From assembly GCA_010093705.1 (NCBI GenBank), contig MU006097.1, positions 1-64,000 on the forward strand: 64,000 nt of DNA. The letters are read 5' to 3'. The DNA is from Patellaria atrata CBS 101060 (lineage: Eukaryota). The translations under genes were made by a program, and so were the position numbers. This document shows, one piece after another, positions 4,622 through 29,960 of the stretch; the first letter of the stretch is position 1; each line of letters opens with the position of its first letter. Below the pieces are notes generated by a model. The model had not been told where the DNA came from. It made no database searches and saw only the letters and a program-made list of their open reading frames with translations.

Positions 4622-6345
4622 TATGTGCGGCAAAGGTATACTTGTAATCTTAGAAGAGGGTGAGCAATTCGAGGTTTTTACAAGGAATGAACGAAAGGTA
4701 GTCGCAATAGGCTTTTTTGCGCTGTGTAGGACGCGACTAAATCATCACCACATGTGACAACGTGTAGGTCAATTTTACGTCACAGGCCAAGCCTAATCTT
4801 AGAGTACAGCAATGTTAGGTTACTACCTCATACTCCGCGGCAGTACATAAAGGTGTGTACGCGTATTGATTACGAAATACTTTGAATGAAGTTTTTTTGA
4901 AAGTAAGGTATATAATAACCTAATGCATATAGAAGTAATTCTGATGGTGTTGGTACCGTATGAGAAGATGTTAGTTTTTGACCCTTGCAAGGATGGATAC
5001 TGTACTATGATAATAAGACTTCGTCTCAGGTTGGCCTAAAGCATGCTGTTGTTGAACTCGTGAGAAAGGAAAGTCCCGAATCTATACTTGTGTTTATACA
5101 ACTTCTAATAAGGTACGGTACCTTACCTTATCACTGCTGTTGTATCCAATGATGATGAGAACGGCAGGTCCATGTGGATTCACGATTAGGCGGTTGTAAC
5201 CTAAGTCATAGAATCTAATACTGTACTGTACTGCACTGCACAAAGTAAGGAAGTAATAGGGCCATAACAGGAGTATCTCACTTTTTCTGCTCTCCGGTAT
5301 TCGAACTCTGGCTGAGGTACTTGCTCCGATCCTGTCGAGCTCCGAAATTACAAGTATCCTCAGCCTCATAAAGCTCATTTGGGAATATGAAGTTGAAGGT
5401 ACAGATATAGTAAGATAAGTTTTCGAGATAGGAAATAAAAGCTATATTCTGTTGGTGAATTTATTAAGAATAAAAGAACGTTGGGAAAGCCGAGACGAAA
5501 CCTGATATGATATTGCACTAGTCTTAAAGTGTGTATAGTGCGGCTCCTCTAATCGTTCGGTTCATTAAGGTACAAAAGGCAGGGCCGATTTTAGAATCAA
5601 GTCCCAATACCACCCATAGTGGGCTTAGCGAGTCTTATTTATAAGAGATATTAAAGAGGCCTTTAGTACTATAAGCGATCTTATAATACTCTTTAAATCT
5701 ATCCCTTTTTCCAAATTTATTTACTCCATCTAGTAAGTTTATTAGAGGTCCCCTGAAATTTTGTACTGTAAGCCGGGAAACCTAACCAAACCTAACTCGG
5801 AAAGCAAGCCAACACAAAATCAAACCTACATCTCACCTCACCTCAACTCACTTACCTCACCATATAGCTCGGGAACTCCTTTCGTACATTAAAGATTTTT
5901 CTTTGCTCATTCTCAGCTGTTTAGCTTGTAACTTCAAGTGGCACAGGTGGATCGTATAAGAAGAACGGTAAAATCGACACGTGGAGAGTCCAAACATGAT
6001 CACCATTGGAACGTTTGGCTGAGGTAGTCTACGGTGAGGTCTCCGATGGGATTCAAGTCCAAAAGAATGGCACTAACCTTAACTTAAAGGCCAGTAATAG
6101 TTGTTGTATAGTATAATGCCGTGTTTCTAGAAGGGTATTTGGTGGTAGACCGTGGAATTGCAAAATTAGCCTACTTTTAACGTTTTCTCTCAACCTTTGG
6201 CCATCCTGTTCTTATATAATTAGTGTGATAGTGACGTCGTGATAGTCTCGCTTTATTCTTAAAGACTTTCTATTCCACCTCACCTTTTATCAAACTTATC
6301 TGCCTTCCAATCTCCGTACAGATCCCTCTAACCTTCTACTATACG

Positions 6346-23533: not shown

Positions 23534-25576
23534 CTATCGCAGAGGGACCTTAACATCTTGCACACCACTCTTTATTACATCCTCTAGCTTCCATCTCGGT
23601 GGAGTGACCGAGGGTTTCTTGCCTGTAGCTTCCATCTCGCGTCTAATCTCTTTCTCCATCTCGTTGGTTAAGCCATCAGGTAATGGTTCAGCACCGCCGG
23701 CAATGCCGCTTGAGAACTTGAGTTGGACCTCGTTTCCGATCTCATTACAAGCAGTCAGCATTCTGTCTAAGTCGTCTTTTGTATGAGCTGCCGAGACGCA
23801 GAAACGAGCGCGAGATGAAACGAGGGGAGTAGCAGGATATCCGACTACGACGACGGAAATCTTGCGCTTTAGCATTTGGTGAGAGAAAGCCGGCATCTTT
23901 GCGGGATTGTAAAGCATGAGGGGAATAATAGGAGAGTCATCATGACCAACGACAATGAAACCTAGCCGCTTGAGCCCTAGGCGGAGGTATCGAGAGTTGA
24001 AAGCTAATCTTTGCAGTCGCTCTTCACCTTGGCCTGGGCTAAGCTCTCCTGTAATGATCTTGAGGGCTGACAGAATTTGCATAAGCACAGGTGGAGTGGG
24101 TGATTCGCCAAACATGGTACCTGCGTTCGTAGCACGGAGTTTGTCGATAATGGGTTTGTCTGCGGCAATATAGCCTCCATTTGCGCCAAATGACTTCGTG
24201 AGGGTACCCATAAGAATGTCAACTTCAGCAGGATCGATACCGAAGTAATCGCATACGCCACGTCCTTTTGGTCCAAGTGCTCCGACGGAGTGCGCCTCAT
24301 CGACGTAAAGACTGAATTTGTACTTTTTCTTGAGCTCGACGAGGCCTGGAAGATTACACATGGTTCCCTCCATGGAGTATAAACCTTCGACAGCAACGAG
24401 GATCTTCTTCCACGGACGATGTGTTCTTGGTTGACCCTGAGAGATTACTTCTCTAAGTAAGCGTTCCAAATCTTGCATGTCGTTGTGCTTGAACATTTCT
24501 ATCATAGCTCCCGATAATCTCGCGCCGAATCGAATTGATGAATGGTTGAGCTCGTCAGAGATGATAAGACATCCTTTCCCCATGAGAGCAGGGAAAGCAA
24601 CAGCGTTTGTGACAAAGCCCATCGAGAATACCATAGATGCAGGTTTCCCAACGAATTTAGCAATGCAGTCCTCGACCTCCAGATGAAGATCTGTAGTACC
24701 AACATCTCCTCTAGAGCTAACGGTGCTGATACCGTATTTTTTAACTGTGGCTTCTACAGCATCCGCACAAGGGCCCTCCGACTGTGCAAATCCGAGGTAA
24801 TTGTAGGAGCTCATATTAAGAGTTTCCGTGGTAGTACCTGTGAACTGGAAATTGTAGAATCCATCGTTCGAAGTCCTATCAAGGAGAGTGATATATCGAC
24901 CTGGGACTCCTGTGGTCGGGCGATTAAAGCAATCATTGATACGCATCTTGAGCCGACGAACGTAAAAGTTATCGAAATCGCTATTCAGCGGAGCGTAGCC
25001 GTTCCTTTCCATAAGATGTTGGTAATAGTTTTTCCTGAATCGTTTCCCAAAAAAGTCTCGAACGTGTCCAAAGATGATAAGAATAAGATATGAAATATAA
25101 GTCGTCAATAGGAAAAAGTACGGTGGTTCATCTTCAATAGGTTCGGGAAACTCTCCTCCAGTAAATCTGCTCGAGTATCTATGAGTTTGCGAACCTAGGG
25201 GACCGAATTGAGCGTGTTGTCTAGCAATTCGACGCGCTTCCTCCGGCGAAGGAGGTTGGAAGATAGTTGTTGTCCGATCTTCCATTGCCTTCTCGCCCGT
25301 CGCAGTGGACAAGGATATAGTAGGTAAGGATAGTGTCGAGACGTTGATGGAAGGCGAGGGAGAATTCCGCAGAGCTCTCTGCTGAGCAGCGAGCGCAGCT
25401 TGGAAGGCTGGGTCGCTAGCCTTCGACTTAGGAGACGTTGAAAAGAATGACGTGAATCGATTATTCGTTTTGGAAAGAGAGGACCTCCTAACGTTCTTCT
25501 TCTCGCTTGGTGGATCGAGAATAGATGCGTTGGGAGAGGGATTGCTAGCGAAAGGGTTGATGCTTCGAGTAGGCAT
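23534..25576 (-). CDS. LCB2: Serine palmitoyltransferase subunit 2
   Basis: Motifs LNMSSYNYLGFAQ, SDELNHSSI, YVDEAHS and the PLP lysine motif GTLTKSFG. Single 680-aa exon. Confidence 0.96.
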   Translation of the reverse strand: MPTRSINPFASNPSPNASILDPPSEKKNVRRSSLSKTNNRFTSFFSTSPKSKASDPAFQAALAAQQRALRNSPSPSINVSTLSLPTISLSTATGEKAMEDRTTTIFQPPSPEEARRIARQHAQFGPLGSQTHRYSSRFTGGEFPEPIEDEPPYFFLLTTYISYLILIIFGHVRDFFGKRFRKNYYQHLMERNGYAPLNSDFDNFYVRRLKMRINDCFNRPTTGVPGRYITLLDRTSNDGFYNFQFTGTTTETLNMSSYNYLGFAQSEGPCADAVEATVKKYGISTVSSRGDVGTTDLHLEVEDCIAKFVGKPASMVFSMGFVTNAVAFPALMGKGCLIISDELNHSSIRFGARLSGAMIEMFKHNDMQDLERLLREVISQGQPRTHRPWKKILVAVEGLYSMEGTMCNLPGLVELKKKYKFSLYVDEAHSVGALGPKGRGVCDYFGIDPAEVDILMGTLTKSFGANGGYIAADKPIIDKLRATNAGTMFGESPTPPVLMQILSALKIITGELSPGQGEERLQRLAFNSRYLRLGLKRLGFIVVGHDDSPIIPLMLYNPAKMPAFSHQMLKRKISVVVVGYPATPLVSSRARFCVSAAHTKDDLDRMLTACNEIGNEVQLKFSSGIAGGAEPLPDGLTNEMEKEIRREMEATGKKPSVTPPRWKLEDVIKSGVQDVKVPLR

Positions 25577-27140
25577 GATAGTAGGTTCGAAAGGGCCCCT
25601 GGGTTGATTTGCTGGAGATCTTTGAAGATGTCCAATTGCAATTTAGGATAGGAGAGGAGAAGGGCGTAAGATGATGGAGTCGATGCGTAAAGGTCTAGCA
25701 GATTTGTAGTTTTATGGAGGTGCTGAGTCAAACTATACAGAAGTACTTTCCAGTATTAGCCACTATAGCTCAAGGAAGAATCATCAAGCAGAAAATATTT
25801 TAGATGGTACTGGTGGGAGTGAAGAGGGAAGCAGTTTGTTGTAATTTCTCTCGACCGGAGGTGCGCGGGAAAGAAGGAAGCATCCGGCTCACGAAGAGAT
25901 TCTCTTAAAGGTTGAAGCGCGTACTGGGACAATTTTGCTTTTTGAATTGCATGTAAGATAGGAGGAAATAGGTTTACTTACAAGCGACAGGTATTGCACA
26001 CAACGTCTGAGCCCTTAAAAGAGCGAGGAAGAGCTGTTGTAGCACAAAAATCTCCAACGGCCGCGAGGAGCAAAGGAGAGAAATGGAGCTCTGGCGATGC
26101 TGGGCGAGACTGCAAGGTACCCACGTCCGAGGCCCAAGCCCCCCCGCAGACCCCCTTATTAAGATTTCCACGCGACGGCTTCCCGACAAATGTCCGGTTT
26201 CCAAAAGCTACGGCCTTCGATCAAGAGTCCGATATTGCGAAAAGAAAAGGAAATAGAAGTATAAGGAACGATTGAGGTGAAAGGAAATAAGGACTTGAAG
26301 ATGGTACGGATCAGATATCTCTTAAAATTGAGTTGAAATTAAATTTCGAAGATCAAAGGTCAGCCAGTAAGAAAGCAGAGAAAGGGAAAAGCTAAATACA
26401 AGAATGATACAGGGATAGGTAAGCATGTGGTAAGCCCAACGGTTATAACGAGATACCCGACCCGACGGCGTTAGGTTACGAGTACTGAACTGTATTATAC
26501 GACAAGGTTGGATATCTTGCAATTGGTTCTGTCTACTGATGTACAGTACAGCACTCTCAATTATAGTCGTTTAGATTTATCCTTCTGTGAGATCCTCATT
26601 CTCGATCGGATACAATTGAGTGAATATACAGTACTATACTCTATGGGAGTAATACTACAGGTAATAAATCCGTTTGCAGATCTTAGGCATGAGTCGAGGC
26701 AACCCCTTTTCATAGGCTAGACCGCTCTGTGACTCCAAGCAAATGGGCAAGAAATGCAAGTTGTCACCTTATTCACCCACATCAAGACCCTTCGTTCAGA
26801 GATACAAGCATGAATCGTAACCGGTATATATGGTTTGATTCAACCGAGCAGATTGCACTTTTACTAAGCTCGACTCTTGACCCTGATTCCAGCTGCCATG
26901 CAAGAATGGGAGCAATGACGAGCCGTCGTAAGCTTTCAATACCACCTTAACCAACTCTCAGGGTGATAAGAATCAATTTACTATCCTACATGCTTTTGAG
27001 AAATGTACCTACATACGCTGCGATTGAGGAAGCCAGCGGAAATGGGTGGCAAGATCATCAAAGTGAGAGATGCCCAGATGCGTTTGGACGTCGTACCTTT
27101 TGATCTTACCTTTCCATCCCAATCAACGGCCATGTGCTTT

Positions 27141-27179
27141 GCAGGTAAGTATTTCCCGGTACAACCTATACTCACCCAC
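27141..27179 (-). promoter_or_regulatory. Hairpin pairing a 5' splice-site-like motif with an exact U1 snRNA 5'-end sequence, downstream of the U1-70K stop
   Basis: The minus strand reads GUGGGUGAGUAU-N15-AUACUUACCUGC, which gives 12 contiguous pairs including 3 G-U. Confidence 0.45.
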
Positions 27180-27600
27180 CAGAAAACAAAACATAATGAA
27201 AAGATTAAAGAAGACCTGGGGGAGCAGCAGCTTGGCTAGTAAAACATGAGAAAAACCAATTCCAATCCCACTTCTTCCGCTTACCCGTGTTTGTCGTGTC
27301 GGGCAAATTACTTGTTGTGTGTGCGAAAGAGTTGACGGGGCGGTCGTTCGAAGCGGTATCGGTAGTATCGGCGACGTATCTGGAAACTGAGAGAGTTTGC
27401 GCATGCTTACCCTTGCAATGATAGTTGCGAAAGTAGCTTGGGTGAGAAAAGACCAGCTAAAGCCGTCCAAAAATTGTCTGCCTTACCCTTGGTGTGAAAG
27501 GGGTGAAGTGTGAAAAGTGTGAATGCGAAAATCGAGTATACCAGGGACACAATGGACATGCTATAGTCCAGTAAAAGAGCTGGAACTTGCAACAGCGAGT

Positions 27601-28908
27601 CTAGTACCTTCTCTTGCTTCTGGGGTCGTCGTATCCATCACCGCCGTAGTTGCGTTTCTTGGAACCATCGTCTCGTCCGTAGGGGCCGTCATGTTCGCGA
27701 TCTCTAAACCCAGATCCTGGTTCGCCTCTCTTACCCACAGGTTCACGGTTGCTTCCACTTCCGCGATCGCCCCCCCTGTATCCTCTATCTTCGTAGGGTC
27801 GACCACCACCATTAGGACCATCCATGGGACCGGAATTACCGTAACGGCCGCCACCTCCATACCCACCACCAAAGCCGCCTCCTCTACCACCACGAGGTCC
27901 GGAGGGTGCTCCTTCGGGAGGCGCTCCATTACCTTGGAACCCGATACCGCCTCTACCTCCACTATACCCACCTCTAAAACCACCTCTATCTCCGCCAAAG
28001 CCTCCTCTGAAGCCGCCGCCGCCGCCTCGACCACGGAAGCCTCCACCACTAAATCCACCTCGGAACCCACCAGGACCAGCCGGAGGACCAAACCCTCCTG
28101 AGCCTGATGGTCTTGCTGGAAGCGCCTTAGTATATCCACGTCCGCCTAGACCGCCTCCAAAGCGTCGAGGTCGCCATCCAGAAACGGTCCTGCCACGCTC
28201 GACGTCAACAAGTACTCGTCGGTCTTTGATACGGATACCATCGGTTTCTTTGTAAGCGGCTATAGAAAAGAAAGCAGAGCTCTCGTGTTAGTCTTGATCA
28301 CACAGATTTACCTGATAGGGGAGGATTGGAGTTGGGGAATTGGGATGAGTGCTGCAGTACCCTTCATGTCCTTCTCACGCTCATATACAATGAAAGCATA
28401 GCCTTTCGTTTTCTTCTTCGCTAATTTCTCTGGACTTGCGTGAGTATCGGCAACAATACGTATCTATGTGCTTGTCAGCGATGAACTGGTGATACGATGA
28501 TAAAAATGATAGATAAAAACATACCCTTTCAATAGGGCCGAAACGCCCGAACTCTCTCTCGAGATCTTTAACTTCTGTATCATAGCTCAACCTAGCTACG
28601 AACAGTGTCTTGAAAGCATCTCCTCTCACTTGCGGATCCTCGTCTGGTTTGTATTCCTTGACGCCCTCCGTCAAAAGATTCGTAATCTTCTCCTTCTTCT
28701 CCTGTTTGATCCTATCTCTGCGCTGCTGCCAGCTCTCGGTTGGGACATAATGATCATCGTACTCCTTCAGAGCTTGAAGATAATCGCCAACACCGGTAAT
28801 CTTCGCGGTCCGGCGATTTTCGGGCGCATGGTCGGCGTGAACTAGGTATCGCAATGCTGGTCGCGGTGCGAAGAGCGCAAGAAGATTTGGTGGGAGTTTA
28901 TCTGTCAT
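27601..28908 (-). CDS. SNP1: U1 snRNP 70 kDa protein (U1-70K), 3 exons
   Basis: [31 protein letters not shown]...[23 protein letters not shown]...[22 protein letters not shown], and an RGG-rich tail. Introns at about 28524-28464 and 28360-28260. Confidence 0.96.
28281..28306 (-). promoter_or_regulatory. Candidate U1 stem-loop-I mimic hairpin overlapping the branch point of U1-70K intron 2
   Basis: The sense RNA reads UCU-GUGU-[GAUCAAGACUA]-ACAC-(G)-AGA. The loop resembles the U1-70K-binding loop GAUCACGAAG. The branch sequence GACUAAC spans the loop/stem junction. Confidence 0.55.
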
Positions 28909-29435
28909 AATGGCATTTGTCAAAATGAAGCGCCGATAAATCAAGATGACAGGCACGTAGGACCCGATCCAGATATGTTCTGGGGATGAAAACAATAAAA
29001 GGAATGAGTTGAAGTGGAAGGTTGGGGTTACAAGGATCGCGTCCAAGGCTTAGTAACTCTAGTCGTGGGACTGCAAACCGCCCAAAATCAATGGGACCAT
29101 CAGACTCTCCCTATACTGAGAGGAAATTAACACCAGAAAGACAATAGTTATAGGACCGTGAAGAAGTCAGAATATTTTCCCTGATACATAGAATATACTG
29201 GTCTCTTCAGATTTTCAAATTTGCTCGAATTTTATACCGTAATCCCTTATTGAAGAAGGTGACTTTCTGTTAGTCCCACGATTAGTTACCAAGCCTTGGT
29301 CCCTTTCTCTCAGTGCCAAGAAAAACCCTTTTCCAAATAAGGCCCGTGCACCATCTTCGGCTTCAAACAGTTCAACTTTCTAGCGATGGAATAATGATAT
29401 ATCGTTATCATACTTCCTCCACAAGTGTCATCAAT

Positions 29436-29960
29436 ATGCCTCTTGCAGCATTAAGGTCTGTCGCCAAAGGCCAGGTATTTGCATTCCTCTAAAATCCGTT
29501 CACTCTCCAACCAGACTAATACTTGAATCCGTAGAATGGCGTCGGCGCATTCGTGCTCCAATGCAAACGCCTCGATTTTCATTACTGCGACTGGGCGGGC
29601 AGTTCGAAGGGCATGAAGTATGGCTGTCAAACAGGATTTCTCTTCATCTACTAATTCCCCTTTAGCTCCTTTCTTAAGCACACCCTTCCGAGCTTTGCGA
29701 AAAAGCACCCTCAAATCGAAATCCGCGTATCCCCACGACCGAGTAAGCATCCCGTCATCAAAGCATCCTATATAAATGGGCGTGAGAAGGCCATTTGTGT
29801 ACGAAATATGGAGAAAGAAGAGATTCTTCAAAAAGCTGAGCTATTACGAGATGCCAGTGGAGAAAAATTGAAACGGACGCTCAATAAACCGGTGAAGAGT
29901 TTAAACGAAAGCATAAGAGGTGTTTGGAGTCCGTTCCATGGAGCTCGATATCAAATATAA
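29436..29960 (+). CDS. MRPL51: Mitochondrial large ribosomal subunit protein mL43, 3 exons
   Basis: Exons read MPLAALRSVAKGQ / NGVGAFVLQCKRLDFHYCDWAGSSKGM / ...HPVIKASYINGREKAICVRN...SIRGVWSPFHG. Confidence 0.93.

Follow-up and report, generated by a model that had tools for sequence, protein, structure and literature searches.

Downstream of the gene for U1-70K, a protein of the small nuclear ribonucleoprotein (snRNP) U1, the genome of Patellaria atrata CBS 101060 carries a series of motifs resembling 5′ splice sites. They lie on contig MU006097.1, within the stretch of 64,000 nucleotides (nt) analysed here as a whole (the window), on the strand of the gene and past its stop codon. The question raised by this locus is whether they are an accident of composition, donors of an intron in the 3′ untranslated region (3′UTR), or sites at which U1 snRNP acts on the transcript of its own protein. 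Observed are the cluster of motifs, its strand bias, its conservation, its specificity for U1-70K, its occurrence in RNA-derived contigs of relatives and the potential of a helix there to pair. The reading that we favour, with modest confidence, is that the approximately 600 nt beyond the stop codon constitute a conserved 3′UTR module of U1-complementary sites exerting negative feedback on U1-70K.

Donor-like sites after the U1-70K stop codon

Exon 1 of the gene matched Pfam U1snRNP70_N (1.1e-30) and its homologues carry the name U1 snRNP 70 kDa; among the matches listed, the nearest named ones were from Dothideomycetes, with Botryosphaeria at the top (80% identity). The gene and the donor-like sites are the following, a slash standing before the first base of each donor.

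27601..28908, minus strand: U1-70K gene, with ATG at 28908-28906, exon 1 at 28525-28908, two short introns and TAG at 27603-27601
27481..27488, minus strand: site 1, GG/GUAAGG, 113 nt past the stop codon
27405..27412, minus strand: site 2, GG/GUAAGC
27279..27286, minus strand: site 3, GG/GUAAGC
27168..27180, minus strand: site 4, the "strong donor", GGUGG/GUGAGUAU, with the donor part GGUGAGUAU at 27176-27168
27091..27110, minus strand: distal tandem pair, G/GUAAGAUCAAAAG/GUACGA, the whole pair being GGUAAGAUCAAAAGGUACGA, donors 13 nt apart
27003..27016, minus strand: overlapping donor-like motifs, GUAUGUAGGUACAU, a site at +588, at the end of the enriched zone

A motif search and a script located five minus-strand GGTRAG, occupying 27487-27482, 27411-27406, 27285-27280, 27176-27171 and 27110-27105, in agreement with a sequence-only reading of this DNA, the coordinates of which point to the G of GU; the less canonical GUACGA (27096), GUAUGU (27016) and GUACAU (27008) listed there are likewise all present on the sense strand. 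The five sites span 27105-27487, or 113-490 nt past the stop codon, and four of them have the form GGGTRAG. About 0.25 matches had been expected by that reading, which agrees with our value of approximately 0.23 at equal base frequencies; from the minus-strand density of the window (50 per 64 kb) the expectation is approximately 0.30 per 385 nt. When the 50 minus-strand and 41 plus-strand matches of the window were placed at random 5000 times, at least five fell within 385 nt on either strand in 1.06% of the placements (P ~0.011). From the window alone the cluster is thus only moderately significant, and suggestive; it is the comparative data across related loci that make it decisive.

Complementarity to U1 was scored against the canonical 5′ end of U1 RNA, which may not be the host's own sequence. 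Seven sites in the window have at least seven contiguous complementary positions (G-U allowed), and one has 10; this one is site 4, which alone among the five GGTRAG sites has U at +6.

A search for windows resembling this one gave none. For the comparison, 34 of the 120 listed homologues were aligned and the alignment was used to fetch loci from metagenome contigs. It matched 573 metagenome stretches, 506 of which encode a relative, and the best 80 of the 506 were kept. The stop codon was placed by tblastn with C-terminal queries of 60 residues, a stop being required right after the match, in 53 of the 80 loci. Two loci with weak matches (L061 and L062) and two with less than 100 nt downstream (L075 and L078) were left out, and the remaining 49 were clustered at 90% identity into 35 clusters with one representative each. 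Lineage labels of the loci are those of the best-matching named proteins and are approximate. The three loci closest by exon 1 (L017 at 80%, L018 and L011) end before the stop codon or 211 nt after it, too short for the 3′ region of any close relative to be aligned to the window.

The donor enrichment that the sequence-only reading had proposed to look for in orthologous regions was found: over the first 600 nt of the 35 loci, all with U1-70K genes of the ascomycete type, GGTRAG occurred 100 times in sense and 8 times in antisense orientation. The densities after the stop codon were 5.33 per kb sense and 0.43 per kb antisense (18,749 nt), and the flanks of the same loci gave a background of 0.51 per kb (161 in 317,924 strand-nt). 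Sense exceeded antisense in 32 of the 35 loci and the reverse was seen in none, the three ties (L010, L021 and L024) having no sites. The enrichment is limited to the interval from 0 to +600, with 0.30-0.81 sites per locus per 100 nt; beyond +600 the values are mostly about 0.04-0.05, with one bin, at +1100, at 0.18. As a control, the ends of 63 other long open reading frames (ORFs; at least 250 codons, from the window and the loci) showed a mean of 0.17 GGTRAG per 600 nt and a maximum of one.

When the loci, the window aside, were joined by any blastn similarity of their downstream DNA, 17 groups resulted; sense exceeded antisense in 16 of them and the density reached at least 3.3 GGTRAG per kb in 15. 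Since these groups are mutually non-alignable, the signal is not one inherited stretch counted repeatedly. In an unbiased word count the leading 6-mer was GGTAAG, with 86 sense and 1 antisense occurrences where 3.9 were expected, spread over 31 of 35 loci, and the leading 7-mer was GGGTAAG, with 41 sense and 0 antisense occurrences where 0.9 were expected, in 28 of 35 loci. Sites with at least seven contiguous U1-complementary positions, G-U allowed, numbered 137 sense and 20 antisense, which corresponds to 7.3 per kb on the sense strand as compared with 1.25 per kb in the flanks. A homologue of the gene downstream of U1-70K in the window was present in none of the 23 loci having more than 2.5 kb downstream; with neighbouring genes differing in this way, the cluster goes with U1-70K and not with the promoter of a neighbour.

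The positive loci resemble Pleosporales, Dothideales, Leotiomycetes, Sordariomycetes and lichen fungi. More distant U1-70K homologues, without the ascomycete-type RRY end, showed 0-2 sites and no cluster (17 loci, the stop codon being placed by ORF extension and three of the placements unreliable).

A second conserved word, GGTTTGT, was noticed at +11 to +80 past the stop codon in 16 of the 35 loci (for example L030, L041, L051, L065 and L073), often followed by GGGTGGGT; the window contains no exact copy of it. In Pleosporales-like loci the sequence after GGTTTGT is AAAGGTTACCTCC, with the potential to pair with the first donor site.

Site design, retention in RNA and a predicted helix

Across 105 sites, A was found at -3 in 50%, G at -2 in 46% and A at +3 in 86%. 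U at +6 was scarce, occurring in 10 of the 105 sites as compared with 60 of 244 GGTRAG of the flanks (Fisher P 0.0012), and scarce also against the 27.8% T of the region (binomial P 6e-6), whereas G at -2 was over-represented (48 of 105 sites, 56 of 244 in the flanks). Real fungal donors favour U at +6, a base in contact with U1 as well as with U6. Avoidance of this base is suggestive of sites that bind U1 yet splice poorly.

The sites recur in a common layout. The first lies at +39 to +165 in almost every locus and mostly at +59 to +165; one or two sites at about +60 to +230 are followed by a strong donor GGURRGUAU with 9-11 complementary positions, and this in turn by a tandem pair AG/GUAAGG...AG/GUAAGR with donors 10-13 nt apart. 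In many lineages the strong donor stands 40-70 nt upstream of the pair, and the tandem layout was seen in Pleosporales-, Leotiomycetes-, Sordariomycetes- and lichen-like loci. The window conforms to it, having the strong donor and the tandem pair in addition to the sites at 27487, 27411 and 27285.

Transcription through the sites, which the sequence-only reading had presupposed, was borne out in RNA-derived contigs of relatives, with one case verified and four probable. Locus L035 is a complementary DNA (cDNA), a 74-nt intron being precisely missing from it by comparison with the genomic locus L029 (97% identical). It is collinear with L029 up to +496, with the sites at +86, +150 and +487 and the strong donor retained, and it ends 3 nt past the last of these three sites, the first distal donor motif (GGTAAG). 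Four short contigs (L001, L004, L005 and L016) have uninterrupted full ORFs of 401, 408, 386 and 339 codons, respectively, and extend 200-841 nt past the stop codon with two to six sites retained. They are probably cDNAs too, because many genomic loci, including some in the groups judged nearest, show shorter uninterrupted ORFs and split frames. The sites are therefore present in the RNA of relatives and mostly unspliced in its dominant form; no spliced 3′UTR form was seen among the RNA-derived contigs. For P. atrata itself, two sequencing runs contained this stretch, as contigs including the introns, probably from a DNA source. Odd C-termini in 13 of the 120 annotated proteins were considered as traces of 3′UTR splicing and set aside, as they reflect frameshifts, truncated or partial models and read-through of intron 2, and are uninformative on that point.

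In the window's lineage the tandem pair is accompanied by a conserved block. It and a further element between site 4 and the pair are located as follows.

27048..27067, minus strand: conserved block CUCACUUUGAUGAUCUUGCC, common to the window and seven Pleosporales-like loci
27141..27152, minus strand: copy of the canonical U1 5′ end, AUACUUACCUGC, with the exact copy AUACUUACCUG at 27152-27142

The block has the consensus CUCRCUUGRUGAUCUURYC and lies 3′ of the tandem pair in these eight sequences. The first donor of the pair, together with four bases beyond it, finds its complement in the core of the block, so that the anti-donor UGAUCUUGCC (27057-27048) has the potential to form 10 base pairs with GGUAAGAUCA (27110-27101), and RNAalifold predicted exactly this 10-bp donor/anti-donor helix. 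In the alignment, 78 of 80 cells are paired in the helix, as compared with 20-53% after a shift of the partner by 1-3 columns, and seven pairs vary on one side while always remaining paired. The hairpin at 27120-27040 of the window has a predicted energy of -28.3 kcal/mol (z -3.83; 1 of 200 shuffles as good). It persists when all 601 nt of the 3′ region are folded together, and the resulting fold is not itself unusual (z +0.86). The donor/anti-donor helix is, on these predictions, probable but not proven in the window's lineage.

The U1-like copy AUACUUACCUGC could form a 12-bp stem with site 4 (fold of -14.7 kcal/mol); this hairpin was not significant (z -1.44; 14 of 200 shuffles as good), and ACTTACC was found in the first 900 nt of only L058 among the 35 other loci. 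Both the copy and the hairpin may be due to chance. On the plus strand, 27142-27152 reads as a perfect donor, CAGGTAAGTAT, the mirror of AUACUUACCUG; no plus-strand gene is evident there. A C/D box small nucleolar RNA suggested by UGAUGA at 27060 was rejected, as relatives have GGUGAUC or GUUGAUC at this position.

Donor motifs outside the array were also recorded. The last exon contains a GGGTAAG at 27730..27736 of the minus strand, in the codons V-G-K and roughly 130 nt upstream of the stop codon; at the matching protein position three lichen-like loci (L030, L051 and L065) have GGTAAGA in the codons P-V-R (Val = GTA). Only one other stretch of the window, 5837-6284, has five GGTRAG in 500 nt; at 5832-5861 donor motifs overlap one another over 30 nt of the minus strand, GGTGAGGTAAGTGAGTTGAGGTGAGGTGAG, with no long ORF on that strand.

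In the coding part of the gene, intron 2 (28270-28355, minus strand) starts with a weak donor, GTACTG, and contains CAG/GTAAAT; it is read through in three annotated proteins (P0055, P0097 and P0119). Some multi-gene genomic contigs (L012, L013/L014 and L002/L003) have an uninterrupted U1-70K ORF of 462-471 codons, which shows that the intron content of the gene differs among lineages.

Readings of the array

The feedback module that we favour would work as follows. Assembled U1 snRNP, which needs U1-70K, would pair with the (G)G/GUAAG sites on the U1-70K transcript. The sites would be built to hold U1 and not to splice, as their avoidance of U at +6, their preference for G at -2 and their retention in cDNAs suggest. 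U1 bound in the terminal exon would then lower the amount of mature mRNA, either by a block of cleavage and polyadenylation or by nuclear retention and decay, so that more U1 snRNP would give less U1-70K. In the window's lineage, the anti-donor UGAUCUUGCC would mask the tandem pair's first donor by means of the 10-bp helix and thereby set a threshold for U1 access. U1 snRNP is proposed as the reader from sequence complementarity; the repressive output and the feedback are inferred as well.

Several observations weigh against this reading. The group of L010, L022, L024 and L044, related by blastn, has just 0-1 exact GGTRAG, together with 2-4 wobble-tolerant sites at matching distances. G at -2 is not part of the canonical exon-side consensus and could pair with the U1 sequence used here only by a G-U wobble, which leaves some room for a reader other than U1. 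Contigs assembled from cDNA represent just the dominant isoform, and a rare or unstable spliced form would escape them. A poly(A) site could be placed in none of the loci; in the animal and viral cases the distance between such sites and the poly(A) signal matters. As to the helix, two-sided compensatory change was seen in none of its 10 pairs among the eight sequences, which makes the shuffle control of the helix uninformative. A covariance model of the distal module found, in 44 sources, its eight training sequences and a marginal L079 (E 0.73); the helix is thus lineage-limited in this data set. Finally, neither inhibition of poly(A) polymerase by fungal U1-70K nor fungal use of U1 outside splicing received support from this analysis.

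The principal alternative is regulated splicing within the 3′UTR, which we regard as possible but clearly less probable than the module described above. The strong GGURRGUAU or the proximal sites would be real donors and the other sites U1-binding enhancers; splicing more than about 50 nt past the stop codon would lead to nonsense-mediated decay or to an altered 3′ end, and the outcome would still be negative feedback by U1. Splicing more than 50-55 nt past a stop codon triggers decay, and the first sites, mostly at least 59 nt past the stop, fit this rule. One site per locus has the full donor consensus including U at +6, and the end of L035 just beyond the first distal donor motif agrees with splicing as well. 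So do two published systems, represented here and below by excerpts of their sources: the tandem pair resembles the element known as USSE (PMC5473595), and SNRNP70 has a switch that depends on clustered 5′ splice sites (PMC3798272). Against these points stand the lack of any spliced form among the contigs derived from RNA, the collinearity of L035 through two proximal sites and the strong donor, and L001 and L004, which read through every site. No conserved branch point with acceptor was evident by eye in the Pleosporales-like alignment, and the scarcity of U at +6 speaks against a splicing role for most sites. The sequence data lean to a non-splicing route because of this avoidance and of the retention of the sites in cDNAs. 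The conserved UUUUAUUAG of Pleosporales-like loci was considered as an acceptor and rejected, its AG being lost in L039, L001 and L002.

A reader other than U1 is unlikely. Termination factors of the Nrd1/Seb1 type recognize GUAA/GUAG motifs, and such a factor or another RNA-binding protein could direct 3′-end formation or stability with no sensing of U1. The over-representation of G at -2, which the U1 consensus does not ask for, would suit it, as would the sense-strand enrichment of U-rich words, UUUCUU for example. The conserved core, on the other hand, spans -1 to +5, with 86 of 104 GTAAG occurring as GGTAAG, which exceeds what a GUAA-type reader needs; in extended sites the match to the U1 complement reaches 11 positions; and the host gene is that of U1-70K itself, the cluster being absent from the 63 other ORF ends.

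Still less probable is a separate unannotated gene or spliced non-coding RNA in the spacer to which the donors would belong. Downstream on the same strand, the neighbouring gene is an ORF of the aminotransferase class at 23534-25642 (Pfam Aminotran_1_2), which we take to be serine-palmitoyltransferase-like, and the 1.95 kb between it and the U1-70K stop codon contain no long ORF, leaving space for such a transcript; the perfect plus-strand donor at 27142-27152 could also be cited for it. The cluster, by contrast, begins 39-165 nt past the stop codon in nearly all loci and ends at +600, L035 is a single contig from the coding sequence through the sites, and the neighbouring genes vary between loci. 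None of the seven ORFs of the spacer had a Pfam match, and Rfam gave only a chance match to bxd_4 (E 8.2) in 25500-29500 and none at gathering scores in the whole window. Chance or base composition, for which the only moderately unusual P within the window might speak, has a negligible probability, being already refuted by the ten-fold strand-specific enrichment in 16 of the 17 mutually non-alignable groups.

A wider form of the feedback module, which we put forward tentatively and with less confidence than the module itself, is that Pezizomycotina use U1 outside splicing, a decoy array in the 3′UTR, tuned to hold U1 and not to splice and partly masked by the helix, repressing 3′-end formation or export of the U1-70K mRNA. 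If true, this would be a fungal counterpart of U1-mediated control of polyadenylation and a U1 analogue of USSE, and would point to an independent origin or to a very old principle. The array is a concrete and easily mutated element with which fungal U1 control of 3′ ends, export and decay can be tested. Gene predictors may splice the region after the U1-70K stop codon wrongly, and the avoidance of U at +6 may provide a naturally occurring case of U1 being held at sites that are not spliced.

Comparison with known systems

Full-text literature searches found no description of a 3′UTR element of fungal U1-70K and no account of control of U1 snRNP balance in filamentous fungi. The balance between U1 snRNP and its proteins is known to be controlled in vertebrates (U1A; the U1C/U1-70K switch), as is that of the minor spliceosome (USSE).

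According to the excerpts of PMC5071671, a sequence like a 5′ splice site upstream of a poly(A) signal inhibits polyadenylation via U1-70K, as in the late 3′UTR of bovine papillomavirus type 1; the late element of human papillomavirus type 16 has four tandem sequences of this kind, and the mammalian U1A mRNA has such a site in its terminal exon. The fungal array is like these in consisting of donor look-alikes in a 3′UTR, several per element and here probably unspliced, and is complementary to the canonical 5′ end of U1; with U1A it shares a host mRNA encoding a U1 snRNP protein and the prospect of feedback. It differs in that those systems are viral or mammalian, whereas here fungal U1-70K carries 2-6 exact GGTRAG over 600 nt, and more when wobble is allowed. 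The fixed layout and the predicted anti-donor helix also set it apart.

USSE, as excerpted from PMC5473595, consists of unspliced tandem 5′ splice sites that activate an upstream 3′ splice site in the 3′UTR, and brings about negative feedback that includes nuclear retention. The USSE of U11/U12-65K and U11-48K and the present array are alike in having tandem 5′ splice sites in the 3′UTR, deep conservation and a host gene for a protein of the cognate snRNP, the tandem pair being found at 27110-27091 of the window and in many loci. The sites of USSE are of the U12 type and read by U11, whereas those described here are GUAAG, of the U1 type; and no acceptor was found by eye in the alignment for the array to activate. 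The likeness is taken as a working analogy and not as membership.

In vertebrates, a switch at exon 7a of SNRNP70 needs a cluster of 5′ splice sites (excerpts of PMC3798272). That cluster is intronic, downstream of an alternative 3′ splice site, and the switch yields an isoform subject to nonsense-mediated decay, whereas the fungal cluster lies after the stop codon and was not found in such an intronic arrangement. Intact 5′ splice site motifs also cause nuclear retention via U1-70K and ZFC3H1 (excerpts of PMC9074902), a consensus donor in the 3′ terminal exon lowering export, much as would be expected of the array; the pathway has fungal relatives, the Schizosaccharomyces pombe homologue being Red1 (same source), and a link between spliceosome and exosome is reported to extend from yeast to human (excerpts of PMC13322074). 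This retention differs in being a quality control of misprocessed human RNA and not the work of a conserved gene-specific array. The principle of an snRNP sensing decoy splice sites on the mRNA for its own protein is known, and what is new in the array after U1-70K is its place, its taxon, the design of its sites and the probable anti-donor helix.

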